Of a DNA stretch of 64,000 nucleotides, positions 2,043 through 23,954 are shown one piece after another. Made by a program: the position numbers and the translations under genes. Below the pieces are notes generated by a model, which had not been told where the DNA came from, did no database searches, and saw nothing but the letters and a program-made list of their open reading frames with translations. Every line of letters starts with the position of its first letter. Position 1 is the stretch's first letter. The DNA is taken from positions 1 through 64,000 of IMG/VR virus record IMGVR_UViG_3300025128_006599; one strand, written 5' to 3'. The DNA comes from a virus.

Positions 2043-2241
2043 AAGAGATATATGGGAGTTCGGTGAGGGATACTATAAAGTACATATTACCGACTCTGAG
2101 GCATATCAAAAAATAAAAGACTTTTTGGGAATTGTCCAAGATAGTTATTATAAGAAAAATGGAGAAATTTTTGCTTGGGACGTTACGGTTGCAGAGAAAA
2201 AGTTACCCAAAGTGAAAAAAATACTCAAGGAGTATTCTTGA
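2029..2241 (+). CDS. small hypothetical protein
   Basis: 70-aa ORF overlapping both neighbours in operon fashion. Confidence 0.6.
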   Translation: MGIHKRDIWEFGEGYYKVHITDSEAYQKIKDFLGIVQDSYYKKNGEIFAWDVTVAEKKLPKVKKILKEYS

Positions 2242-5200
2242 TACAAGAAAAAATAAAGGTTCCGTTTAGGAAACTTAAACACATACACCACATATCAGAT
2301 ATACAAATTCGTAATCTGAAACGACATAGAGAATACGAAGAAGTATTCAATGGTTTATACGAAGAGGTAAAAAACAATCCAGATAATGCAGTTGCATATA
2401 TCGGTGGAGATATTGCACACAGTAAAACCGAAATGTCACCAGAGTTAATTGATCAATTGTCTCGATTATTCAAAAACTTATCTGATATTGTTCCTACAAT
2501 TATTATCGCTGGTAATCACGATTGTAATTTAAATAATCTAAACAGAATGGATTGTTTAACACCAATCGTAGAAAACCTAAATCACCCTAATCTACATTAT
2601 CTAAAACGAACAGGAATATATACTTGTGCTGATACAGATTTTATCGTATGGGATGTATGGGATAACGAAAAAGATTATATCAAAGCTAAAGATGTACCTG
2701 GTGATAGGAAGAAAGTTGTATTGTTTCATGGTACGGTAGATAGAAGTGAAACCGATTTAGGATTCAAGTTACCAAGTAAAGTAAAAATGAGTATGTTTAA
2801 GGGATATGATTTAGGATTACTTGGTGATATACATAAAAGACAACATTTAAATAAAGAAGAAACCATTTCTTATTGTGGTTCATTAGTTCAACAGAATCAT
2901 GGTGAGGATATCGGTAAGGGTTATTTACTATGGGATATGGAAACTCTTAAATCCGAATATAAAGAGATACATAATGATTTCGGATATTATACAATTGATA
3001 TTCAAGATGGAAAATTACCTGATTTAAGTGATTTACCAAATAAACCAAGAGTTCGTGTACGAGTAAGTAATACGAAACCTGCTCAATTGAAAAGGTTGAT
3101 GACTAAAGTTCAGAAAATGGCAAAAATTCAAGAATCAGTTATCACACGAGTAGATGGATTATCAAAAGAAAAGATTCGTGATAATAAAATAAACATTGGA
3201 GATGTTAACAATCCCGATTATCAGTATGATTTAATTAGTGAGTATTTGAAAAACAATTATATTGTTGATGATGATACTATGATTAAGATTAAAGATATTT
3301 TAACAGACCTAAATAGTGTTATACCAGAAGCAGATATTCAAAGAAATGTACATTGGAAGTTAAAGAGATTTGAATTTGATAATATGTTTAGTTATGGAGA
3401 AAACAATGTAGTTGATTTTACTAAACTAAATGGTATTATTGGATTATTTGCACCAAATGCTACAGGTAAATCAGCATTATTAGATGCTTTGAGTTTTTGT
3501 TTATTTGATACTTGTAGTCGGGCATATAAAGCAGATAACATTATTAATAATTCAAAATCTACTTTATATTGTAAAGTAAACTTTGAAATTGATGGAGTAA
3601 ATTATTTTATTGAGAGAAGAGGTAAAAAGAATCTTAGAACTGGTCACGTTAAGGTAGATGTAGACTTTTGGTTAATTGATGATAGTGGTGATAAAATATC
3701 ATTGAATGGAGACCAAAGAAGAACTACACAAGTTAATATAAGAAAAGTGATTGGTGGATATGACGATTTCATATTAACTTCAATGAGTAGTCAGAACAAT
3801 TCTACCGTGTTTATTGATAAAACACAAAAAGAACGTAAAGAATTATTATCTCAGTTTATGGGATTGAAGATATTTGATACACTATATACTCAGGCAGCTG
3901 ATGATATTAAAGAAGTAAATACACTTTTGAATGATTTTAAAAAATCTGATTACGATAGTGAGTTGGCACAAATAACTAATGATTTAATTTTACTTGAAGG
4001 TAAGAAAAAAGATTTTAAAAAGGACGAAAGAGGATTAAAAAAGGAAATAAAGTCTGTACAATCTGAGATAAAGGAACAGACTAAACGATTGAAACACGTA
4101 GACGATAGTTTACAATCAATTGAAACTCTTGAAACAGAACATAAGAAGTTACAACAATTATATGAACAAGTCAAGAATAAACTTTCAGAATATGAAATGG
4201 AACAATTTGATTTTGATAGAGCATCAAAGGAAATAGAAAGTAAGATTGAAGTTTATAAAAAGGATAATATAGAAGAAAAGTATTATGAATTAGAAAAGCT
4301 TGAAGAAGAACGAGATTTGTTTCAAGTAGAAATTGATAAGTTAAAGATAGAAGTTCGTAGTAAATTAGATAAGATTGAAAAACTTGGTAATTTAACTTAT
4401 GATGAGGATTGTAATGATTGTATGACAAATCCGTTTACTTTAGATGCAATTGAAACTCAAAAAAACCTTGATAAAGATAAATCACTTGCACAGAGATATG
4501 TTCAAAAGAAACAGAAGATGGAAGAACGAATACAAAAACAATTTAAAGTTCGTGCGTTCAAAAAAGATTTAGATGATTTGGAAAATAAATTAAATGACAA
4601 ACAACGTTATCAAGATAATATAACATCTAACATACAATTAAATAAAGAAAAACAAAAAAATATAACTACACAATTAAATTTAATTACGACTAACATAGAA
4701 AAATCAAAATCACAAGAACAAAATGTTATATTTAATCAACAAGTAGAAGTTGAGATTGATAAATTACAAAATAATAGTGATGATTTAGATTATCAATTAG
4801 ATGTTGTTAGTGATAAATTAACTACACTTCACGGCGACATTCAAGTATTAAAAACAAAAGAAAATCAAATCAATGACAATATTACTAAAGTAGAAGAACT
4901 TGAAGATTCACATCAGGCATATCAATACTTACTTGAGGCAATCAAACGAGATGGTGTACCATATGATTTAATCAGTAAATCATTACCGACTGTAGAGGGT
5001 GCTGTAAATGATATCTTGGCACAGATAGTTGATTTTAATGTATTGTTTAACATGGATGGTAAGGTAATTGATACTCATATCGTGTATGATGATGATAGAG
5101 TATGGCCTTTAGAATTAAGTAGTGGTATGGAGAGATTCATATCATCACTTGCTATTCGTGTAGGATTAATGAATGTAAGTAATCTACCGAGAAGTAACTT

Positions 5201-5399
5201 TCTTGCTATAGATGAGGGTTGGGGAACTATGGATAATGAGAACCTAAACTCGGTTGCACAATTATTTCAATATTTAAAAAGTCAGTTTCAATTTACTTTT
5301 GTGGTTTCTCATATAGAATCAATGAGAGATTTTGTAGATACGTTATTAGAGATTAAGAAAGTATCTGGTAGTAGTTCAGTCAAATTTAGTAGGGACTGA
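2238..5399 (+). CDS. Mre11/SbcD nuclease fused to Rad50/SbcC ABC ATPase (T4 gp47+gp46 equivalent)
   Basis: Metallophosphoesterase motifs SDIQ, GGDIAH, GNHD, FHG, GDIH; Walker A APNATGKS, coiled coil with CNDC hook, signature SSGME, Walker B AIDEG, VSH. Start reassigned to TTG 2238 (AAGGAG upstream, TTGA overlap with previous stop). Confidence 0.93.
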   Translation: MIQEKIKVPFRKLKHIHHISDIQIRNLKRHREYEEVFNGLYEEVKNNPDNAVAYIGGDIAHSKTEMSPELIDQLSRLFKNLSDIVPTIIIAGNHDCNLNNLNRMDCLTPIVENLNHPNLHYLKRTGIYTCADTDFIVWDVWDNEKDYIKAKDVPGDRKKVVLFHGTVDRSETDLGFKLPSKVKMSMFKGYDLGLLGDIHKRQHLNKEETISYCGSLVQQNHGEDIGKGYLLWDMETLKSEYKEIHNDFGYYTIDIQDGKLPDLSDLPNKPRVRVRVSNTKPAQLKRLMTKVQKMAKIQESVITRVDGLSKEKIRDNKINIGDVNNPDYQYDLISEYLKNNYIVDDDTMIKIKDILTDLNSVIPEADIQRNVHWKLKRFEFDNMFSYGENNVVDFTKLNGIIGLFAPNATGKSALLDALSFCLFDTCSRAYKADNIINNSKSTLYCKVNFEIDGVNYFIERRGKKNLRTGHVKVDVDFWLIDDSGDKISLNGDQRRTTQVNIRKVIGGYDDFILTSMSSQNNSTVFIDKTQKERKELLSQFMGLKIFDTLYTQAADDIKEVNTLLNDFKKSDYDSELAQITNDLILLEGKKKDFKKDERGLKKEIKSVQSEIKEQTKRLKHVDDSLQSIETLETEHKKLQQLYEQVKNKLSEYEMEQFDFDRASKEIESKIEVYKKDNIEEKYYELEKLEEERDLFQVEIDKLKIEVRSKLDKIEKLGNLTYDEDCNDCMTNPFTLDAIETQKNLDKDKSLAQRYVQKKQKMEERIQKQFKVRAFKKDLDDLENKLNDKQRYQDNITSNIQLNKEKQKNITTQLNLITTNIEKSKSQEQNVIFNQQVEVEIDKLQNNSDDLDYQLDVVSDKLTTLHGDIQVLKTKENQINDNITKVEELEDSHQAYQYLLEAIKRDGVPYDLISKSLPTVEGAVNDILAQIVDFNVLFNMDGKVIDTHIVYDDDRVWPLELSSGMERFISSLAIRVGLMNVSNLPRSNFLAIDEGWGTMDNENLNSVAQLFQYLKSQFQFTFVVSHIESMRDFVDTLLEIKKVSGSSSVKFSRD

Positions 5400-5654: not shown

Positions 5655-8600
5655 ATGCCAATCACAAAAAGGTTTAATGAACTACAAGGTTTAGCCGATA
5701 TAGATGTATATTTTGAAGAAGAGGGTTTAAATTCTAATTTTTTCAATATCACAGAATTTCCTGATCCATTACAAGTAGGTAAAAATTCATTCCTTATCGC
5801 GGGTTCAGAAAAATTATTAAATTTTACAGAATTACAAATTGATATAGTTGATTCTGCTGGAAACTCTATATATCATGAACCCGTTCGAGAATATCTTGAA
5901 GGTAATATGAGAAGAATCTCAATTGAGGTATACGATACTAATGCACCTGGTAGTGGATTTTTACATATTGTTGGTGAGGCACATACAGAACGAGTTGATG
6001 TTCCAAATGAATGGCACGGTGTCTATAATGTAAGATACTCAAGACCGATTTCAATTAACACTACTCAAGTAAACACTCAACCAATATTTTTTTACAAACA
6101 GCCTAAAATTCGTGCCAGAGAAATAACTAAAGCATTTATAGACGAACTACCAGCATCTGCATCATATTTTATAACAGGTAGTGTAACCGTTACTGCAACC
6201 ACACCAGGTACTCCGATTAATCCAAAAGAATTTGATGATGACTTAGATGATAAAAATCCAGCTGTTACTTTTACAGGAGAGGACAGACCTGGTAAATTTT
6301 TAGATACGTTCAAAAACAAACGAGAAAACAAACGAATAAGTATTAACCAACCTACTGTTTTAGCTTTAGGTCGTGTATCAAGACGTGCTTCTCCAGAAAC
6401 ACCCACACATACAATTACAATACAAGGATTAGAATCTTCTCCAGAGAATGTACAAGATAAATTAACGAGTGCTTTTGTTGGTGGTAAATTAAAGATAGAG
6501 TCACCTCAAGTAGATGAGTCTACATACTTTATTGGTAGTAATTCACGAATAACAGTAGATTCCACCTACGTAACAAGAATTCAAGAAGTATTAAATTCTA
6601 CCACGATAATACCTGAAACACCTTTTGTTGCAGAGGTACACTCATCTCCACAAAGTGACAATAAAACTGGTTTTAAAGATCCAAACTTTACCGATTGGGA
6701 AGTATGGCCAAACCTTCAACCTACTGGTAAAACAATAGAGTCTTTGGAACCGAAAGATGTACAACCTCCACAACCAGATACACCACATATAGATGAAACA
6801 GGAGCGACTTGGTTATGGGGAGAGGTGACAGACCCATCGAGAATACCAAAAGAAGAAGAAGCGGGTGGAAACGCTAATATAAAATATTATGGTTGGAATG
6901 AATCAGGAAGTATAAGTCAGGAAGTAGCAAATTCTACGATTCGTAGAGAAACCGTTAGTATGTTACCAAATAATAATGTTACAATGTCAATTGTACCGAC
7001 ACCTGAGAAAAAATTAACCTCAACTTATCTTAGAAGTTATGCTGATTTCTCGATTATAAATATGAGAACATTTAGTGGTGATATTTTTAGAGTAAAGATA
7101 TATGGAAAGATAAGAGGTGGTTTAACTGATTTTGAATTGTTATATGATTCACCTATAGAATCACCAGAAATTTTAATTGATCCATTTAGTGTTGATGGAT
7201 TTACAAATGTTGGATATTTTTATACTGGTTCTGTTATATCTGATTATTGGGCATCTTCTTCAAATAGTGTCATAAATCAAAATGATGATTATTTAGTTGA
7301 TGGTGTATTGATGAGTGGTTCTAACTACGAAGTAGATGAAGAAGTTGAGTTTTTCACTACAGCATCTTACCAACTCGAACGAAACATTTCTTATGCAGTA
7401 GGGTTTGATTCCTATTATATAAAACAACCAAAGAAAGTTACGGTTACAACGGGTGGTTCCGAATCAACAAAAATAATAGATAGAGCAGAACTAAAGGTAT
7501 TTTTAAGTGGTTCTCGAGCAAAAGACGGAACAGGAGATATAGGTGAAGACATTTATCTTGGAAAGGTTAGTATTCCTGATGGCCCTGCAACAGATGAGGG
7601 TGAACAAAAGGGAGTTTATCAAATTTTCAAAAGTGCTCCTAAACACTTCCCAAGTGCTCAGTTAAAATTTGTTGCAACTGCAGGTCAATGGGTTATAAAA
7701 GATGTTAGTATAAAACCTACTGAGGAAACAAATTTTAGTCCTGATTATTTTAGAACTATAGTTCCACTACCCTTTATGCACAAACGTCCTGCAAAAATGG
7801 ACTTTTTGGTTGAGTTTTATGACGTGGATGGAAAGATTGCGGATTCATTTGGATTTTTAGAAAACTTTAGAATTGTAGGAGCACCACAAGTTATACAAGG
7901 TGATAATAACTTATTGAGTGGTTCTATGTATCTTGGAAACTTACAAGGTCAAGGTATCGAAATACACGGTGGTTCAGCCTATTTACGTTCTATTGGATAT
8001 GAAGGATTTGAAGCTACGATATCAAGTGGTAGTGGTGGATTTATGATATTTAGTGGTTCATTAAGTGGAAGTCGTGCCGATGGAACTCAACTTTTACATA
8101 CAACCGAAAGTTATGAGGGTGTTGGATTAGAGATGGTGGATGCACATGGTTCAGTTGATAGATATTTGAGATTTAGAACTAGTCCAAGTATTTTTGAAGT
8201 TGTAACTGATACATTCTTTTTAGGTAGTTCAACACAATTCCTTAGTGGTAGTAATCAACAGATAGAGATTAGTTCAAGTAATTTCCATTTACAACCCGAT
8301 GGTGATGTGGTGATGCAAGGTACTATTACAGCAGAAGCTGGTGGTACTATTGGTGGATTTACTATCAATTCTGATAATTTGGCTGCAACTGATTTTGTAT
8401 TGAATACAACTGATAAATCTCTTTCTATGGGTAGTGGTAATTCAATATTTCTTGCAGACGCTGATACAGGTATACAATTAGGACATGCAACATTTGCAAG
8501 TGCACCATTTAGTGTAACATCAGAAGGAGCTATTAAAGCAACATCTGGTGAAATAGGTGGATTCGGATTAGGTGGTTCTACTATTAGTAGTTCAAACAAT

Positions 8601-11600
8601 AATTTAATATTAAAAGATAGTGGACAAATCACAGGTTCAGATGTATTATTTACTGGTGGTAGAGTTGCAAATTGGGATATAACAGGTGATACACTTTCAA
8701 GTGTTAACGCTTCCAATAAAGGTATTATACTTGATGCGGATAATTCAACACCAATTATTGAAATTAGAGAAGATGATAATAATCGTGTACAAATATATCA
8801 CACCACTTCTACTAATTGGGGACTTAAAGGAATTTCAAATGGTGATACTATATTCCGATTAGGAGATACAAATCGGATTGCAGGATTTACTTTTACCAAT
8901 AATATTATGTCAAGTAGTAATTTACTTATAAACGCAGATGATGGAGAAATCAGAACTTCTAATTTTGTAACAGGTACAACAGGTTGGAGAATAAGTGCTG
9001 GAACGTTTAGTGGAGTAAATGCAAACGGAACTGCTGAATTTGAAAATGCTAGGATACGAGGTACACTAAGAACTGCTGTATTTGAAAAAGAAACTGTAAA
9101 TGCAGTCGGTGGTCAGTTATGGGTTGCGAACTCTACGGTTTTATCTGGTTCGGCATCTGCAACTGATACTGAATTATTTTGTGATAATGTTAGTGGATTT
9201 GTAAAAGATGAAATTATATTTGCGAAGAAAGTAGATGGTACTGGATTCACTAAAGAATTTATGAAAGTATTTTCACAAAGTCGTAGTGATGTTGATTCTG
9301 ATAATGACTTTTCTGGTATCTTACACGTTACTCGTAGTTTTGGTGGAACGGCTACAGGTTCTGCATTCTCAGTCGTAACCACAATCACAGAACCCATCAC
9401 AACAAAATCTGAAACTGAATTAACAGTTCAAGATGAAAGTCCATCGGGATTAGATTTAGTACACTCAACTATTCGTATCGATAGTGAAATAATGCAAGTT
9501 ACAGGTAGTGTAACAAATAAACTTCAAGTTGTTCGAGGAACGAATGGTACAGCTAAAGCGACACACTCAGATAATTCAAATATAGAGAAAGTGGATCCTG
9601 ATGTTGCATTTTTAATGGGATTGGTTTCACCAGCAGAAGCATATAAAGCAGGACAGGTATTGGTAAGTACTGGTAGATATCTTAGTGGAACGGGAGCTAC
9701 TTCTGCAGGAACTGGTTATATGTTGTTAAATGCAAATCCTGGTGATGCTACAACACCCTATATGGATTTCCATGAAAGAACTGGTAGTGGAATTTATGAT
9801 ACAAAATTAAAAACAAGAATAGGTGATTTGGGCGGCCTTGTTAATACTCGAATAGGTGATGAATTATTTAAAGGAAATAAAACTCCTGGTTTTGGAATGG
9901 TTAGTGAGAATATCTTCCTCAAAGGTGCGATAACTGCAACAAGTGGTTCTATCGGTGGATTAGAAATGACACCTGATAAAATATTTGTAGGTGGAATAGG
10001 AACTTATAATAACTCTGCTACCGCCTTCTTTGTTAGTTCAAGTGGACATTTCAGCTTAAAAGATAAAATCAGTTGGGATGGTAGTAGTACATTAACCATG
10101 AATCCTACTGAATTAAGTATAACCACTACAGGTACTAATAAAATTAAAATTGATTCTACGGGCACACCAAAGATAGCTATGGGTGCAACATTACCAACTG
10201 CATATAATAGTGGAACGGGTTTCTTCGTAGATGGTACAGGTAAATTTTTAGTAGGTAATTCAGGTGGTAATAAACTACAATGGGATGGTAGTTCAGTAAC
10301 GGTTACTGGTACTATCAATATAAGTAATCCAAGTGATATTGATATATCAGATATAAATAACGATAGTGGTTTTACAGATGATTCTACAGCTAATTCTGTA
10401 AATTCTAATTTGGCAGCTCATTCAGCATCTGTGAACGCAAGAACAGGTTCATTAGATACCTTAGAAACACGAGTTGTAATTGATTCTGATGGTATGTCAT
10501 TGAGAGATAGTGGTAATACTGTACTGGCTGATTACGGAACATCAATTCAATTAGGAAGAAATGGACAGGCAAGAACCGAAATTAGCGATACTGCTATTGA
10601 TATGTATGATGGAGCAGTTTCACCAGCAAAACGAGTAAACATTAATAGTAGCGGTGTTGTTACTCTTGGTGGTGATAATGGTGCTACCGATGATGCAATT
10701 GTATTGAGTCCAACTAATGGAGTAACAATTTATGACAGTAACACAAATAAAGCAACTATAACCTCTGATGGACTTAAAATATATGCTGGTCATGCAAGTA
10801 ACACCACTGCAGAGTTTGGTTCGGATGTTTACGTAGGATTACAGGCAAGTGAACACGTAAAAATAACAAATGCATCTATGGAATTTATAGATGGTGGTAC
10901 AACTCATGGTTCTATGACTGCTGGTGTTTGGACAATTGGACAAACTGCAAATAATTTAACAAGATTACAAATGGCAACTGGTTCACTTGATTTTATCCAT
11001 AGAGATGGTAGTGGACAAGATACACATACGTTATCAATGAAACCCGATGGAACGATTCAGGGTACTGATTATTTAATTGAAAAAACAAGATTATTTGGAA
11101 CTGGAGAATTTGGTAGTATATCTATAAGTGGAACAGGTACAGCAACTGCAACAACAGGCCCCAATGGAATAACAGGAGTTGTTAATAGTGGTGGTCTCAC
11201 TACCGATTTAAATGGTGGTCATATTTTTGATAGATTGGGTCTGACTGATATTGATGGTGCTGTTTACCGTGCAAGTAATGGTAGATTTTGGATGATAAAG
11301 GATTGTTATTTTAATGACTTAACACTAATAGGTAATTCAATTTTTTATACAAATGGATTTAGATTATTTGTCAGCGGAACACTAACACTCGGAGACGGAA
11401 CGGGATATGGAGTTATTTACAATCTTGGTGGCACTGGTACGAATGGTGGTGATGCTAGTGGTGGATCAGGTGGTTCTGCTGGTGCGAAAGGCACTGGTGG
11501 AATGGGAGCAGGTAGTGGATATGGTACTTTTGGAAATTATGTTTCAACACCATTTACCGAAGCAAATCATAAACCAACATTAAGAGGTGGTGGTGCTGGT

Positions 11601-11783
11601 GGTAATGGTGGTTTAGGTGGGGCTTCTTCCCTATCGGGTGGCGGCGGAGGCGGCGGAGGCGGTGCAGGTGGCATTAATTTTATCGCAGCTAGAAATATTG
11701 TAATTGGTCACGCTAGTAGTAGAATAGGTGCATGGGGTGGTAATGGTGGTGCTGGTGGTGACGGCGTAGACGGTGGAGGTTAA
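5655..11783 (+). CDS. large virion structural protein (tail fibre/baseplate-associated) with Gly-rich C-terminus
   Basis: 2042 aa, S/G/T-rich; GxIGGF-type tail repeats (GGTIGGFTI, SGEIGGFGL, SGSIGGLEM); polyglycine tracts at the C-terminus. Confidence 0.7.
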   Translation: MPITKRFNELQGLADIDVYFEEEGLNSNFFNITEFPDPLQVGKNSFLIAGSEKLLNFTELQIDIVDSAGNSIYHEPVREYLEGNMRRISIEVYDTNAPGSGFLHIVGEAHTERVDVPNEWHGVYNVRYSRPISINTTQVNTQPIFFYKQPKIRAREITKAFIDELPASASYFITGSVTVTATTPGTPINPKEFDDDLDDKNPAVTFTGEDRPGKFLDTFKNKRENKRISINQPTVLALGRVSRRASPETPTHTITIQGLESSPENVQDKLTSAFVGGKLKIESPQVDESTYFIGSNSRITVDSTYVTRIQEVLNSTTIIPETPFVAEVHSSPQSDNKTGFKDPNFTDWEVWPNLQPTGKTIESLEPKDVQPPQPDTPHIDETGATWLWGEVTDPSRIPKEEEAGGNANIKYYGWNESGSISQEVANSTIRRETVSMLPNNNVTMSIVPTPEKKLTSTYLRSYADFSIINMRTFSGDIFRVKIYGKIRGGLTDFELLYDSPIESPEILIDPFSVDGFTNVGYFYTGSVISDYWASSSNSVINQNDDYLVDGVLMSGSNYEVDEEVEFFTTASYQLERNISYAVGFDSYYIKQPKKVTVTTGGSESTKIIDRAELKVFLSGSRAKDGTGDIGEDIYLGKVSIPDGPATDEGEQKGVYQIFKSAPKHFPSAQLKFVATAGQWVIKDVSIKPTEETNFSPDYFRTIVPLPFMHKRPAKMDFLVEFYDVDGKIADSFGFLENFRIVGAPQVIQGDNNLLSGSMYLGNLQGQGIEIHGGSAYLRSIGYEGFEATISSGSGGFMIFSGSLSGSRADGTQLLHTTESYEGVGLEMVDAHGSVDRYLRFRTSPSIFEVVTDTFFLGSSTQFLSGSNQQIEISSSNFHLQPDGDVVMQGTITAEAGGTIGGFTINSDNLAATDFVLNTTDKSLSMGSGNSIFLADADTGIQLGHATFASAPFSVTSEGAIKATSGEIGGFGLGGSTISSSNNNLILKDSGQITGSDVLFTGGRVANWDITGDTLSSVNASNKGIILDADNSTPIIEIREDDNNRVQIYHTTSTNWGLKGISNGDTIFRLGDTNRIAGFTFTNNIMSSSNLLINADDGEIRTSNFVTGTTGWRISAGTFSGVNANGTAEFENARIRGTLRTAVFEKETVNAVGGQLWVANSTVLSGSASATDTELFCDNVSGFVKDEIIFAKKVDGTGFTKEFMKVFSQSRSDVDSDNDFSGILHVTRSFGGTATGSAFSVVTTITEPITTKSETELTVQDESPSGLDLVHSTIRIDSEIMQVTGSVTNKLQVVRGTNGTAKATHSDNSNIEKVDPDVAFLMGLVSPAEAYKAGQVLVSTGRYLSGTGATSAGTGYMLLNANPGDATTPYMDFHERTGSGIYDTKLKTRIGDLGGLVNTRIGDELFKGNKTPGFGMVSENIFLKGAITATSGSIGGLEMTPDKIFVGGIGTYNNSATAFFVSSSGHFSLKDKISWDGSSTLTMNPTELSITTTGTNKIKIDSTGTPKIAMGATLPTAYNSGTGFFVDGTGKFLVGNSGGNKLQWDGSSVTVTGTINISNPSDIDISDINNDSGFTDDSTANSVNSNLAAHSASVNARTGSLDTLETRVVIDSDGMSLRDSGNTVLADYGTSIQLGRNGQARTEISDTAIDMYDGAVSPAKRVNINSSGVVTLGGDNGATDDAIVLSPTNGVTIYDSNTNKATITSDGLKIYAGHASNTTAEFGSDVYVGLQASEHVKITNASMEFIDGGTTHGSMTAGVWTIGQTANNLTRLQMATGSLDFIHRDGSGQDTHTLSMKPDGTIQGTDYLIEKTRLFGTGEFGSISISGTGTATATTGPNGITGVVNSGGLTTDLNGGHIFDRLGLTDIDGAVYRASNGRFWMIKDCYFNDLTLIGNSIFYTNGFRLFVSGTLTLGDGTGYGVIYNLGGTGTNGGDASGGSGGSAGAKGTGGMGAGSGYGTFGNYVSTPFTEANHKPTLRGGGAGGNGGLGGASSLSGGGGGGGGGAGGINFIAARNIVIGHASSRIGAWGGNGGAGGDGVDGGG

Positions 11784-11819: not shown

Positions 11820-12374
11820 ATGGCAGTAGGAACAGCAGGAACTAACTATGGAGGAACTGGTGGTACTGCGGTTGCATCAATCTCAACAACAAGATTAGAT
11901 GTTATTGATCCACACTTAGTACAAACGTTGAGGGATACAATGGCTGGAGAAGATTTTGCAGCTAGATTAGGTGGTGGTCAAGGTGCCGCTGGTGGAGCTG
12001 GTGGTGGAGCTGGTGGAGATATAACCTCTCCTGCAGGTGTAGCTGGTACTTCGGCAACTGCTCACGGAAGGGCAATACCAAGAGGAACTCAGGCAATAGG
12101 AGCTGCTGGCGGTTCAGGTGGTGCTGGTAGTTATGGTGCTACTGGTGGAAACTCCGACCACGGCGGTGGAGGTGGAGGCGGTGGTGCTGGAAATGGTGGT
12201 GTTGTGGTTTTAATAACCACTACGGCTAGTAATGCCACAACTAAACTTGATACCAGTGTTGATGTAACTGCTGGTACTAAGGGAACCAAAGGTAGTAAAG
12301 GTGGTGGTAATGCAGCTAACGGGGCTGATGGTGGAACTGGAAACGTTGGAACTTATATACATATTCAAGTTTAA
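11820..12374 (+). CDS. glycine-rich putative fibre tip/adhesin
   Basis: GGGGGGGGAGNGG and other Gly tracts; AGGAG RBS at 11808; follows the fibre gene. Confidence 0.6.
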   Translation: MAVGTAGTNYGGTGGTAVASISTTRLDVIDPHLVQTLRDTMAGEDFAARLGGGQGAAGGAGGGAGGDITSPAGVAGTSATAHGRAIPRGTQAIGAAGGSGGAGSYGATGGNSDHGGGGGGGGAGNGGVVVLITTTASNATTKLDTSVDVTAGTKGTKGSKGGGNAANGADGGTGNVGTYIHIQV

Positions 12375-15568: not shown

Positions 15569-16633
15569 TTGGCAACAACAGCAAATCAAAATTTAAGTTT
15601 GGGAAAGTTACAAAGAGCAATTAGTTCATCTCATGGAGATTATACAAGTGAATATAAATTATCACTTGCTAATGCTGGTGCTGAAGTACAAATGAGTGAT
15701 TTTTCAATTAGTAGTTGTGGAAGTGCTTTGGGTGGATATGAATATCTGTGGGAACAAACTAAAGAGGGATACTTTATTGATATTCAAAATGCAGGAGACC
15801 TTTGGATTTCCGCGATTGGTTCCAATAATGACCATTTTACTTGGGACAATGGTTTAGCAGCAAACTCAGTATTATCTGCACCAGACCTACACGGATATTC
15901 TGCATCATTCTCATCATCTGCAATTTCAAATGCACGTACGGGTGATGGTAGTGAAAACCCATTTCCTGCTGGTTCAAATAATTTTTTAGCTGTGATTACT
16001 GGATCTTATGCTGATGATAAACAATCAGATGGATATAATGACCACGCAACAAACTATAATACTGATCTTTTCAAAAGTATTACGATTGTAGATAGTTATG
16101 GTGGTTCACCAACTTGTTTATTAGAGGGAACACCTATTGATATGGCAGATGGAACTACAAAAAATGTAGAGGATTTACAAATTGGTGATTGGATATTATC
16201 AATGAACATGCCAGGTCAGTTAGATGAAGATGAACGAAATTGGCAAAAATGTAGATTTCCTGACTCTGATGATTTCACACAACATTCAGCAAGTGTTCAA
16301 GATATTAACTTCGATTTTTCTTATAATTATTGGAATATAAATAACGGACAAGAGTTAATTACTGGTGAACATGAAATGTTATATAGACCACCACTAGCCT
16401 CAGGTGATTATGCATATGAACAACAATGGGGATGGTTGTACGTACCCAATATGTTGGTTGGTGGTAGTTTAATGGATAAAAATGGAAATGCTGTAGAAAT
16501 AACCTCGTTAGAAAATATAGTAGACCAAGATGAGGGATTTGAAGTAGTGCAAATTGATGTTGAACCATTGGATGTGTATTTTGGTAAAACATTCTTAGTA
16601 CATAACAAAGGAAGTGACGACGATCCATTCTAA
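15569..16633 (+). CDS. structural-type protein with C-terminal Hint (BIL-like) autoprocessing domain
   Basis: C183-LLEGTPIDMADG block A, ITGEH block B, terminal LVHN followed by KGSDDDPF; TTG start with GGAG RBS. Confidence 0.85.
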   Translation: MATTANQNLSLGKLQRAISSSHGDYTSEYKLSLANAGAEVQMSDFSISSCGSALGGYEYLWEQTKEGYFIDIQNAGDLWISAIGSNNDHFTWDNGLAANSVLSAPDLHGYSASFSSSAISNARTGDGSENPFPAGSNNFLAVITGSYADDKQSDGYNDHATNYNTDLFKSITIVDSYGGSPTCLLEGTPIDMADGTTKNVEDLQIGDWILSMNMPGQLDEDERNWQKCRFPDSDDFTQHSASVQDINFDFSYNYWNINNGQELITGEHEMLYRPPLASGDYAYEQQWGWLYVPNMLVGGSLMDKNGNAVEITSLENIVDQDEGFEVVQIDVEPLDVYFGKTFLVHNKGSDDDPF

Positions 16634-21336: not shown

Positions 21337-23484
21337 ATGAATAAATACACTATGTTTGATTCGTTACTTAACGAAATAACCTCAAGTAATTCCAAATGGC
21401 CATCACAAAATGTCGGTGTTATGGTTAGTTTTGATTATGTACCGATGACTATGGGTTCTTATGGATATGCAGATCCTATTGCAGGAACTATATTTGAGAG
21501 TGGTAGTGGAGAATCTCAAACAGTAAAGACACCTGCAGTTAGAGGTTGGGATGAACACGAGTATAAGATTTACGAAATGAATACAAATCCATATCATTGG
21601 ATTAATTCATCTTCTCTTTATGGTCTTTATGATAGAATTACAACTTATGTTAGTGAGAGTAATTATGATAATGTTGTGTTATTAAAACACGTACAACCTA
21701 AAGGTCAAAATCCAAAAGAAGAAACCGTAACATTGTTTAGTCAAAGTCTTGCAACAAAAGATATTAGTTTAGAAGAGGTAGATTATTTATATTTTTCAGA
21801 TACTCATTTACAGGCAAGTAACTCATCAAGTTTTTATCTATTTCAAGAATCACCTTACCAAACTAATACTGGATTAAAACATATAGTTAGTGGTAGTTTT
21901 GAAAAAACAGAATTCCGTAGGATTTTAGGGAACTCTTCAGTTTCTTCATCATTAATACCACTTTGGGATTCAGATAATCCCACGACAAGTGTTTGGGGTC
22001 CTGATTATGTTATTAAAAATAATTCCGTTGATAATTCATTGGCAATTGGTGGTCAGATAATTAAAAGCTATAGACATACTGGTAGTAACGCAGTCGTAGA
22101 TACTTACGCTAGTTATACAGGAAGTCAGTATGTTGTAGAACAATTTATTCTACCTGAGTTCGTATCAGCAAGTTTAGCTTCTGCATCTTCTGATGCATTT
22201 GTGGATAAAATTGATTACCCATATGGAACAACAACATATTTAACAACACCACAAAAAAACATTTTACTACGAGATGATTGGGCTAGTGGACTTGGAAATA
22301 AAAGAACAAATAGAGTTAAAATGACTTCTGATGGTAGTACTTGGAAACAAATCTCAACACACCATTCAAAAGTAGTTCCTTCAGGTTCATTAGTTAAAAC
22401 ACCAACTGGAGCAACTGCGATATCTGAATTGAACATTGGTGATACTGTTTCCTCTTATTTACCAGTTTCAATGTCTACAGAGGATTATGGTTATTTGGAT
22501 TATAGTACAAATACCTTAGTTGGTTCTACTTCAGATACTTCGGAAGTTGTGAATATCACATATGGTAAAGAATTTACCTATACACATATCTACTATGAAG
22601 TAGGTGGAGAGGAAGTTCGAATTAGTGTATCTACTGAACATGCAAATCTTTTCATAAAAGATGTCGATACTAATATATGGGGATGGAAAACACCACCATT
22701 TTTAAAGGCTGGTGATAAGATGTTAAATACAAATGAACAAGAAATTGAAATCACCAGAATGATGGAGAACGTTACGGTAAATGAAGACTATTATGCGTTA
22801 GATGTTGAGGATACGGACACGTATTTTGTTGATGGTATATTGATTCACAATGGTAATAAAAAAGGTACACCATCGGATGGAGCATATCAATTAGATTATT
22901 ATGGAACTGGATGGTCTGGTACACTTCAACATAGAGTTTACGCTCGTGATGCAAGTTGGGGAGCAAGACAAGTATACTCTGATGCTGGTGGTAGTTGGTG
23001 GAACGTTCCGTCAAGTACTTGGAGGTCTTGGAAAACAACATATACTGCAACACAAGATGGAAGTGGTTTTGCATCTACAGTCGATGGTGGTAGTTATGAT
23101 AATATTGCGATGTATAATTATCACGGAAATGGATACTCATTTAGTTCGTTTACTTGGACAGGTGTGGTAAGTGCTCAGAACAATTGGGGCCCTTCAAGTT
23201 ACACTGCATTCTTTGCACATTATACAGGTCAAGGTACTTCAACTTTAGTGGTGGCACTAAGTGATTACAGAACAAAAACGAATGTGGATTGGATTGGAAA
23301 ATCCGAATCTGGTCTTAATATTTATGAGTTCTCATATAATTGGGATAAAGATACTCGTTATCAAGGAGTTGTTGCACAAGAACTTTTAAATACTAAATAT
23401 GAAGATAGTGTAGTTCAAATTAATAGTGGATATTTAGGTGTAGATTATAGTAAATTGGATGTAGATTTCAAACAGGTTAATTAA
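21337..23484 (+). CDS. multidomain protein: ATP-grasp-like N-terminus + Hint domain + ~136-aa beta-rich segment + peptidase S74 (intramolecular chaperone)
   Basis: SFD..YEMNT, PDYVIK, YVVEQFI (ATP-grasp-like, tentative); VVPSGSLV...LNIGD...STEH...YFVDGILIHN (Hint, 22372-22851); SDYRTK...YQGVVAQEL...VDYSKL (S74, from 23260). Confidence 0.75.
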   Translation: MNKYTMFDSLLNEITSSNSKWPSQNVGVMVSFDYVPMTMGSYGYADPIAGTIFESGSGESQTVKTPAVRGWDEHEYKIYEMNTNPYHWINSSSLYGLYDRITTYVSESNYDNVVLLKHVQPKGQNPKEETVTLFSQSLATKDISLEEVDYLYFSDTHLQASNSSSFYLFQESPYQTNTGLKHIVSGSFEKTEFRRILGNSSVSSSLIPLWDSDNPTTSVWGPDYVIKNNSVDNSLAIGGQIIKSYRHTGSNAVVDTYASYTGSQYVVEQFILPEFVSASLASASSDAFVDKIDYPYGTTTYLTTPQKNILLRDDWASGLGNKRTNRVKMTSDGSTWKQISTHHSKVVPSGSLVKTPTGATAISELNIGDTVSSYLPVSMSTEDYGYLDYSTNTLVGSTSDTSEVVNITYGKEFTYTHIYYEVGGEEVRISVSTEHANLFIKDVDTNIWGWKTPPFLKAGDKMLNTNEQEIEITRMMENVTVNEDYYALDVEDTDTYFVDGILIHNGNKKGTPSDGAYQLDYYGTGWSGTLQHRVYARDASWGARQVYSDAGGSWWNVPSSTWRSWKTTYTATQDGSGFASTVDGGSYDNIAMYNYHGNGYSFSSFTWTGVVSAQNNWGPSSYTAFFAHYTGQGTSTLVVALSDYRTKTNVDWIGKSESGLNIYEFSYNWDKDTRYQGVVAQELLNTKYEDSVVQINSGYLGVDYSKLDVDFKQVN

Positions 23485-23954
23485 TGGAAACAAAATGGTG
23501 TAAAATGCATTGTGATATGCAATTATACAAAAAACAATCAGTTATAACCAACAATGTATATTGTGTAAGTGATATTAATAACCTTCCAAAAGAACAAATA
23601 CAAATTGCATTAGATAATTTTGAAAAAAAATACAATTGGACACAATGGACGATTGAAGATGCAAAAAAGAGATTTAGAGAGAAATGGAATTTATATTTAA
23701 TTGAAACTAACGATTCATCTATTATTGGATGGGTTTGGGTTTCTTTTGAGGGAGAAGTTTTAAATGCATATTCCAATCATGATTTCAAAGAGTATTTTAG
23801 CGACAAAGAAGATATTACAGATATTATGGGTGCTTTTATGATGAATTACTCGAAGGACTTAGGTTATAAAAAATTATTTGCAAAAATAGAAGAGTGGAAT
23901 AGACCAAGTTTAGAATGGGCAATTAGACATACTTGGGTTTATGATGAGGAATAA
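23484..23954 (+). CDS. GNAT-like acetyltransferase
   Basis: IIGWVW strand, GYKKLFAKIEEWNRPS C-terminal GNAT motif. Confidence 0.5.
   Translation: METKWCKMHCDMQLYKKQSVITNNVYCVSDINNLPKEQIQIALDNFEKKYNWTQWTIEDAKKRFREKWNLYLIETNDSSIIGWVWVSFEGEVLNAYSNHDFKEYFSDKEDITDIMGAFMMNYSKDLGYKKLFAKIEEWNRPSLEWAIRHTWVYDEE

Follow-up and report, generated by a model that had tools for sequence, protein, structure and literature searches.

A viral polypeptide uniting a predicted ATP-grasp-type ligase, a half-disabled Hint domain, an aromatic-rich beta domain and an S74 chaperone, with possible self-processing at two sites

We analysed a stretch of 64,000 nucleotides (the window) that forms part of the 76-kb IMG/VR virus record IMGVR_UViG_3300025128_006599, estimated to be 42% complete, and we focused on the gene located at 21337..23484 (+ strand). 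This open reading frame (ORF) encodes a product of 715 amino acids in which an ATP-grasp ligase, a half-disabled Hint domain, a beta domain rich in Trp and Tyr and an S74 chaperone follow each other within one polypeptide, an organization that finds support in structure prediction, in searches by fold and by profile, and in the conservation seen across the family. The gene is preceded by an AAGG ribosome-binding site (~12 nt on its 5′ side), its stop codon TAA shares a nucleotide with the start codon ATG of the gene that follows (TAATG), and the composition count of the whole 715-residue protein revealed no Cys. Our results point, tentatively and with a probability of roughly 0.45, to a double processing in which the beta domain (the ‘payload’) would be released at both ends, by the Hint on one side and by the S74 domain on the other. 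In such a process, the S74 domain would trimerise and fold the beta domain, then cut itself off at Leu641/Ser642 by means of a Ser642/Lys647 dyad, and the Hint would cut at Asn505/Gly506, yielding a ligase-Hint piece of ~505 residues and a trimeric piece of ~136 residues that would start with Gly.

The first part of the protein, a permuted ATP-grasp-like amide ligase domain, occupies residues 1-345 (21337..22371, + strand). The AlphaFold2 (AF2) model of this region, built with 28 relatives that share residues 74-505 and came from a deep search, was of moderate quality, with a predicted template modelling score (pTM) of 0.74 and a predicted local distance difference test (pLDDT) of 67.7. With this model, Foldseek returned 10 matches at E <= 0.001 (best E 1e-5), consisting of yeast and human glutathione synthetases, nematode glutathione synthetase-like effectors and E. 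coli YgiC, and the rows with weaker E-values were of the same type (YjfC, GspS and plant homoglutathione synthetase). VIA, which is independent of Foldseek, gave as its top 11 matches only ATP-grasps of the glutathione synthetase/GspS/YgiC type (Z 7.5-11.1, with 221-258 residues aligned over residues 1-345); the next match falls to Z 5.3, and the classical ATP-grasps (ArgX, RimK, LysX, BacD and PurK) reached Z 4-5 over residues 109-345 only. As regards sequence searches, CPSase_L_D2 gave weak matches in three relatives, searching the record with Pfam GSP_synth (PF03738) gave nothing up to E 10, the hhalign comparison of the family alignment with YgiC gave a probability of 0.1% (i.e., no sequence-level similarity), and the ESM Atlas search with residues 1-345 returned no usable match.

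Conservation within the family provides additional information on this domain. In the 28 family members, which are ~30-35% identical to the 715-residue protein, D33, E80, N82, K190, P222, D223 and E268 are invariant, and K227 and R194 are conserved in at least 90% of the sequences. Three candidate motifs can be proposed on the + strand, namely a putative Mg-binding D..ExN triad formed by Asp33 and Glu80-Met-Asn82 (21433..21582), a lysine strand Tyr-Val-Ile-Lys227 that would bind ATP phosphates and resembles YVVK302P of YgiC (22006..22017), and a putative adenine hinge Val-Val-Glu268-Gln-Phe-Ile that resembles IVQQF of YgiC (22129..22146). Their order (D..ExN, then YVIK, then VVEQF) matches that of E. 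coli YgiC (D102..E115xN117, then YVVK302P, then VQQF), whereas the D..ExN triad comes last in classical ATP-grasps, and this YgiC-like order therefore supports a permuted ATP-grasp. Note that an insertion of ~33 residues between D33 and E80 (around residues 35-75; 21439-21561) is specific to the clade of the 715-residue protein, has no counterpart in other family members, and was modelled with low confidence (pLDDT <50 for residues 40-69). The initial annotation, made from the sequence alone, had tentatively compared the N-terminal ~330 residues to permuted ATP-grasp ligases because of D...YEMNT, PDYVIK and VVEQFI, and had proposed a structure model as a check; the model recovered this fold, on which AF2, Foldseek and VIA agree, and the three motifs turned out to hold D33, E80, N82, P222, D223, K227 and E268, all of them invariant or nearly so. 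The predicted structure thus supports a circularly permuted ATP-grasp ligase of the glutathione synthetase/GspS/YgiC type at residues 1-345, and the conserved motifs suggest that this domain is an active enzyme. Enzymes such as GspS, YgiC, YjfC and glutathione synthetase couple a short peptide, through its C-terminal carboxylate, to an amine, and by analogy the substrate of the viral ligase may be a peptide carboxylate that would be joined to an amine.

The Hint domain, of the bacterial intein-like (BIL) kind, is located at residues 346-505 (22372..22851, + strand). By BLASTP, residues 346-512 align (E 5e-8) with a paralogous Hint protein of 354 amino acids encoded in the same window (15569..16633, + strand), which is composed of a 182-residue N-domain, a Hint with Cys183, GEH and HN346, and an eight-residue tail; in this alignment, Cys183 falls on Val346, GEH on TEH433-435, and HN346 on His504-Asn505. 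In addition, a profile of 21 Hint copies matched solved structures (6y75/6tmm at E 2e-8, the ‘bacterial intein-like domain’ 2lwy at E 4e-6 and 8w20 at E 2e-5), and tblastn against GenBank phages with the relative P0008 matched a phage gene annotated ‘large intein domain protein’. Taken together, these three lines of evidence fix both the Hint domain and its register, in which Val346 stands at position 1, TEH433-435 in block B, Ala487 at F:4, Asp494 at F:13 and Gly506 at +1, with no Cys, Ser or Thr after the terminal His504-Asn505. This is the register of the initial annotation, which had seen a Val in place of Cys/Ser at position 1, TEH in block B and an HN end before a Gly with no +1 nucleophile. 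As for the paralogue itself, its tail after HN reads KGSDDDPF and its layout is Hedgehog-like with the N-terminal nucleophile kept, its Hint part matches PHROG 38766 (‘virion structural protein’), and no homologue of it was seen beside the ligase-Hint genes in related loci.

Within the family, the two ends of the Hint did not evolve in the same way. Indeed, SGS (positions 4-6), GD368-369, the block F sequence LDVEDxDTYF and His504-Asn505 are invariant (the His-Asn pair in 14- and 21-sequence alignments and in motif-selected loci), whereas position 1 drifts across 76 loci (Thr in 54, Ser in 15, Met in 4, Val in 2 and Phe in 1), block B contains no conserved Thr-x-x-His (TEH in the clade of the 715-residue protein), and F:4 is either Ser or Ala. 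The domain is homologous to the type A BIL-like members of the Hint superfamily and shares with them a C-terminal His-Asn without +1 nucleophile, and the combination of a position-1 Cys/Ser with a block B Thr-x-x-His, which serves the N-terminal acyl shift, is absent from it. Type A BILs, which also end with His-Asn and have no +1 nucleophile, mainly cleave (PMC4031507). To judge by these residues (Val at position 1, no Cys, and a block B that is not conserved in the family), the Hint has lost N-terminal cutting; together with the invariant His-Asn and the behaviour of type A BILs, they form the pattern of a Hint capable of C-terminal cleavage only, and we infer that it was retained for cutting at its own C-terminal end through His504, Asn505 and the invariant Asp at F:13. 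The predicted Asn-cyclisation site, His504-Asn505/Gly506-Asn-Lys-Lys509, lies at 22846..22863 (+ strand), where H504 and N505 are invariant and K509 is nearly so.

At the other end of the payload, an S74-type intramolecular chaperone domain covers residues 642-715 (23260..23481, + strand). This C-terminal domain of 74 residues opens with a Ser-x4-Lys dyad, carried by SDYRTK (residues 642-647) with Ser642 and Lys647 as candidate catalytic residues, and the predicted cleavage point lies between Leu641 and Ser642. These 74 residues match PHROG 6121 (E 5e-14) and align with the C-termini of hundreds of proteins (E ~1e-16), and the Peptidase_S74 family (PF13884) is passed by 15 of the 21 aligned homologues (best E 1.8e-8), in which Lys647 is invariant and Ser642 is conserved in at least 90%; SDYRTK had already been read as an S74 site before these searches, which are in keeping with that reading. 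Trimerisation followed by self-removal is the established behaviour of the S74 family. It is nevertheless conceivable, at low probability, that the Hint cuts and that the S74-like part stays in place as a permanent trimerisation module or C-terminal cap, or that neither of them cuts, so that the protein would work as an uncut multi-domain enzyme: the 715-residue protein itself scores E 0.27 with Peptidase_S74, below the cut-off, and neither sequence nor fold searches matched a solved S74 structure, the fold list being filled by payload matches. Against such a permanent cap stand the conservation of Ser642-x4-Lys647, the bona fide PF13884 membership of the 15 homologues and the high confidence of the AF2 model for this part (pLDDT 88-97).

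The payload corresponds to residues 506-641 (22852..23259, + strand). The ~136 residues that follow the Hint had been described as rich in W, Y, G and S, and this enrichment is real when compared to the window background (W 5.9 versus 1.6%, Y 8.8 versus 4.9%, G 14.0 versus 6.8% and S 13.2 versus 6.9%), with T enriched as well (11.0 versus 5.8%). Compared to the closest full-length relative, in the IMG/VR locus L002, the payload displays 64% identity, a nonsynonymous divergence (dN) of 0.30 and a ratio of dN to synonymous divergence (dN/dS) of 0.40, and it is therefore the fastest-evolving part of the protein, still under constraint; indeed, all four parts are under purifying selection, with dN/dS well below 1. 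In the same comparison, the S74 segment (23260-23481 versus L002:1724-2362) displays a dS of 0.10 versus 0.37-0.74 in the rest of the gene, and this low value suggests that the S74 module was recently exchanged between lineages. The ESM Atlas search with residues 506-641 found no usable match. We also considered the regions that precede S74 in P0112, P0144 and further proteins as payload homologues; they proved to be low-complexity G/S/N stretches without a common domain.

Beyond the content of the initial annotation, the 715-residue gene proves to represent a single clade within a large family, whose members exchange their tails and are linked to a GNAT gene. Scanning IMG/VR, we confirmed 280 relatives of the ligase-Hint unit. 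In GenBank phages, tblastn with the full 715-residue protein gave no match, tblastn with P0008 matched Hint parts alone, and the N-domain was thus not found by either query; no confirmed relative of this domain appeared in a pattern-seeded scan of GTDB genomes. Likewise, megablast with the 15 kb around the gene gave no match, and neither the whole-protein profile nor the tail profile matched PDB sequences. The ligase-Hint family is apparently restricted to viruses, namely to uncultured marine T4-like phages, and its members are located in T4-like replication regions (PolB and clamp loader). The architecture of the 715-residue protein was found again, with 715-718 residues and 80-94% identity, on several independent contigs (NCBI, ENA, JGI and Logan) and in L002. 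The recombination history visible in the low dS of the S74 segment could raise the suspicion that the fusion reflects an assembly chimera, reading from one gene into another or a gene undergoing decay; however, this recurrence on independent contigs, together with an open frame and a dN/dS well below 1 in every part, already contradicts an artefact of this kind, which we regard as extremely improbable.

The tails that follow the invariant HN fall into distinct classes. In the fetched loci, the shortest class consists of four residues (IPPK, IPKR or LPPK) ended by a true TAA stop, and longer classes have ~140-158 residues (with one Cys1 Hint), ~300 (with two) or ~440-455 (with three). Most relatives carry either the 4-residue tail or tandem Cys-Hints after HN, with Ile or Leu at +1 instead of Gly, and the payload plus S74 tail occurs only in the clade of the window (the window, L002 and the 80-94% identical proteins). 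Lys at +4 after HN is nearly invariant (at least 90%), including in the GNKK of the 715-residue protein. The initial annotation had suggested looking at payload variation among homologues, and the variation is found at two levels, since the tail after HN swaps between classes and the payload is the fastest-evolving part versus L002. The best explanation for the tail of this clade is that it was taken from phage fibre proteins. Several other features of the tails deserve mention. In L006, L008, L014, L024 and other loci, one to three tandem canonical Cys1 Hints, separated by linkers of 2-4 residues, follow HN-IPPK, and the final Hint of P0008 and P0016 stops at ...VLVSDESD(T/E), with no His-Asn. 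We rejected the idea that short relatives terminate at a TGA standing in for the Cys codon of a Hint further on (to be read through or decoded as selenocysteine), since they stop at TAA or TAG and no Hint-like sequence lies downstream. In L003 (9331-10550) and L009 (10257-11488), two tandem 2-oxoglutarate (2OG)-Fe(II) oxygenases of the prolyl-hydroxylase-like Pfam family lie 3′ of the ligase-Hint gene; a link between these oxygenases and the Pro/Lys-rich tail after the Hint (IPPK) would be pure conjecture.

Several observations weigh against the release of the payload at both ends. To the low Peptidase_S74 score of the 715-residue protein given above is added the Pfam PT-HINT match, which reaches E 0.0018 for this protein and 2e-4 for relatives, both below the curated cut-off. 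The Asn-Gly pair at the presumed Hint site is a classic deamidation-prone pair. The payload was modelled by AF2 as beta strands with poor confidence (pLDDT 28-53); Foldseek with this model gave only CBM35/CBM6-like rows (E 0.15-0.5), and VIA gave generic jelly rolls (EclA, BclA/C1q/TNF heads and the Bd2133 fibre tip) at Z 5-7.1, i.e., at background level, so that a jelly-roll sandwich is possibly its fold and a weak lead. F:13 is an invariant Asp in the family instead of the usual His; His F:13 and His G:6 aid Asn cyclisation and are dispensable in some inteins (PMC4031507). Moreover, the Hint of most relatives would free just a tetrapeptide ending in a conserved Lys, which hints that the tail may contribute to the functional enzyme instead of being a leaving group, and these short Lys-ending tails with Ile/Leu at +1 argue against a new N-terminal Gly as a ligase substrate common to the family.

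A different product would result if the S74 chaperone alone were removed and if the Hint were a non-cleaving connector, with its His-Asn kept for folding; the protein would then be a trimeric ligase-Hint-beta protein, which could be a virion-held enzyme or could use a lectin-like tip to reach a glycan or a target on a surface. We consider this scenario unlikely, while giving it more weight than that of a permanent S74 cap. Several features speak for it: in relatives, the short tail is conserved with its Lys at +4, which suggests that the residues behind HN remain in place and have a role; His is missing at F:13; the payload weakly matches jelly rolls, carbohydrate-binding modules and fibre tips; and PHROG labels the S74 part and the paralogous Hint ‘virion structural protein’. 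On the other hand, His-Asn is invariant in the relatives examined while the N-terminal catalytic positions drift, which is the pattern expected of a retained C-terminal cleavage, and Hints that make no C-terminal cut, such as that of Hedgehog, do not keep His-Asn. Under the double processing that we prefer, the excision of the payload as a trimer that now starts with Gly, perhaps as a ligase substrate, is plausible from the predicted sites, and the action of the ligase on the payload would be speculation. One may go further and imagine a self-contained protein-attachment device, in which the Hint and the S74 domain would trim the trimeric aromatic-rich domain and the ligase, with or without the GNAT protein, would use ATP to form an amide bond with a virion protein, a glycan or a polyamine. 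The bond would involve a newly exposed end, either the amine of Gly506 or the tail with its conserved Lys, and the swapped tails of relatives would represent different cargos. Such a device seems improbable to us; if true, it would offer phages a new enzymatic route to decorate their particles or host surfaces.

Each of the modules can be compared to known systems. With type A BILs and pretoxin-HINT domains (2lwy, 6y75/6tmm and 8w20), the viral Hint shares the fold, the C-terminal His-Asn without +1 nucleophile, a variable C-terminal module behind and an expected self-cleavage rather than splicing. It differs from them by the absence of Cys/Ser at position 1 in the clade and of Cys from the whole protein, by a block B that is not conserved in the family, by an invariant Asp at F:13 and by its location behind an enzyme domain instead of a toxin stalk. 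Hedgehog/Hog proteins likewise present an N-terminal functional domain followed by a Hint; however, Hedgehog Hints cut at an N-terminal Cys and have no His-Asn, whereas the residue set is the opposite here. GspS, YgiC, YjfC and eukaryotic glutathione synthetase provide the best fold matches across the 345-residue domain (Z 8.7-11.1) and the same motif order, whereas the viral domain lacks sequence-level similarity to them, has fewer residues and carries a Hint behind it. S74 fibres and tailspikes (of the endosialidase and phage T5 L-shaped fibre type) share a C-terminal domain of ~74 residues with Ser-x4-Lys after a beta-rich domain; in contrast, the 136-residue domain stands here behind a Hint and an enzyme, with no long fibre or spike and with a Pfam score below the cut-off. 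In the BUBL polyproteins of ciliates, BIL domains flank ubiquitin-like domains; as would be the case in the viral protein, a payload is bracketed by two self-processing modules, of which the upstream one cuts at its own C-terminal end. The downstream module is here an S74 serine-lysine protease and not a Cys-Hint, the payload does not resemble ubiquitin and the protein carries a ligase; because S74 takes the place of a Cys-Hint, no thioester-activated C-terminus would be formed. In the literature, we found no description of a ligase fused to a Hint whose residues would allow a C-terminal cut only, nor of a Hint and an S74 domain bracketing one domain.

The gene that overlaps the stop codon of the 715-residue ORF encodes a GNAT-fold protein of 156 amino acids (23484..23954, + strand), whose homologues in related loci match Acetyltransf_1 (10 of 16 GNAT members, best E 1.6e-7). 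In the window, as in L002, this gene comes immediately after the family gene. In 43 related loci, a GNAT homologue precedes the family gene in the same orientation, at a distance of 10-42 bp or of one gene, and the pairing is conserved in 44 related loci altogether. According to the alignment, the copy of the window is devoid of the RxxGxG acetyl-CoA motif that its relatives kept.

At a larger scale, every gene of the window is on the + strand, and a terminase and a portal protein are encoded. The ligase-Hint gene is embedded in a long island of sugar- and protein-tailoring genes, where its neighbours include a GT9/TibC-like transferase, three 2OG-dependent oxygenases, a methyltransferase, a sulfotransferase, two GT7 enzymes with LamG inserts, a radical S-adenosylmethionine (SAM) enzyme and a CMP-sugar cytidylyltransferase. 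Elsewhere on the + strand of the window, a single ORF of 1074 amino acids (2175-5399) includes both a calcineurin-like, Mre11-like phosphoesterase and an SMC/Rad50-like N-terminal ATPase segment, and looks like a fused nuclease of the SbcCD/gp46-gp47 type. Another ORF, of 2042 amino acids and without Pfam or PHROG match (5655-11783), is followed by a Gly/Ala/Thr-rich protein of 184 amino acids (11820-12374); both are probably structural or fibre genes, located upstream of the GT9/TibC-like glycosyltransferase.

Altogether, the four modules described here are known singly, and their combination appears to be undescribed, in a family that is common in ocean viromes and absent from GenBank phage records. 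Even if no cleavage took place, the protein would still represent an unusual enzyme-fibre chimera. If the cleavages do occur, a precisely trimmed trimeric domain would be produced from an enzyme precursor, and intein-like, fibre-chaperone and ATP-dependent amide-ligation chemistries would be brought together in one polypeptide. The family would then provide a tractable model for the non-splicing Hints of viruses and for the swapping of tails behind a fixed cleavage site, and possibly a new tool for protein ligation.

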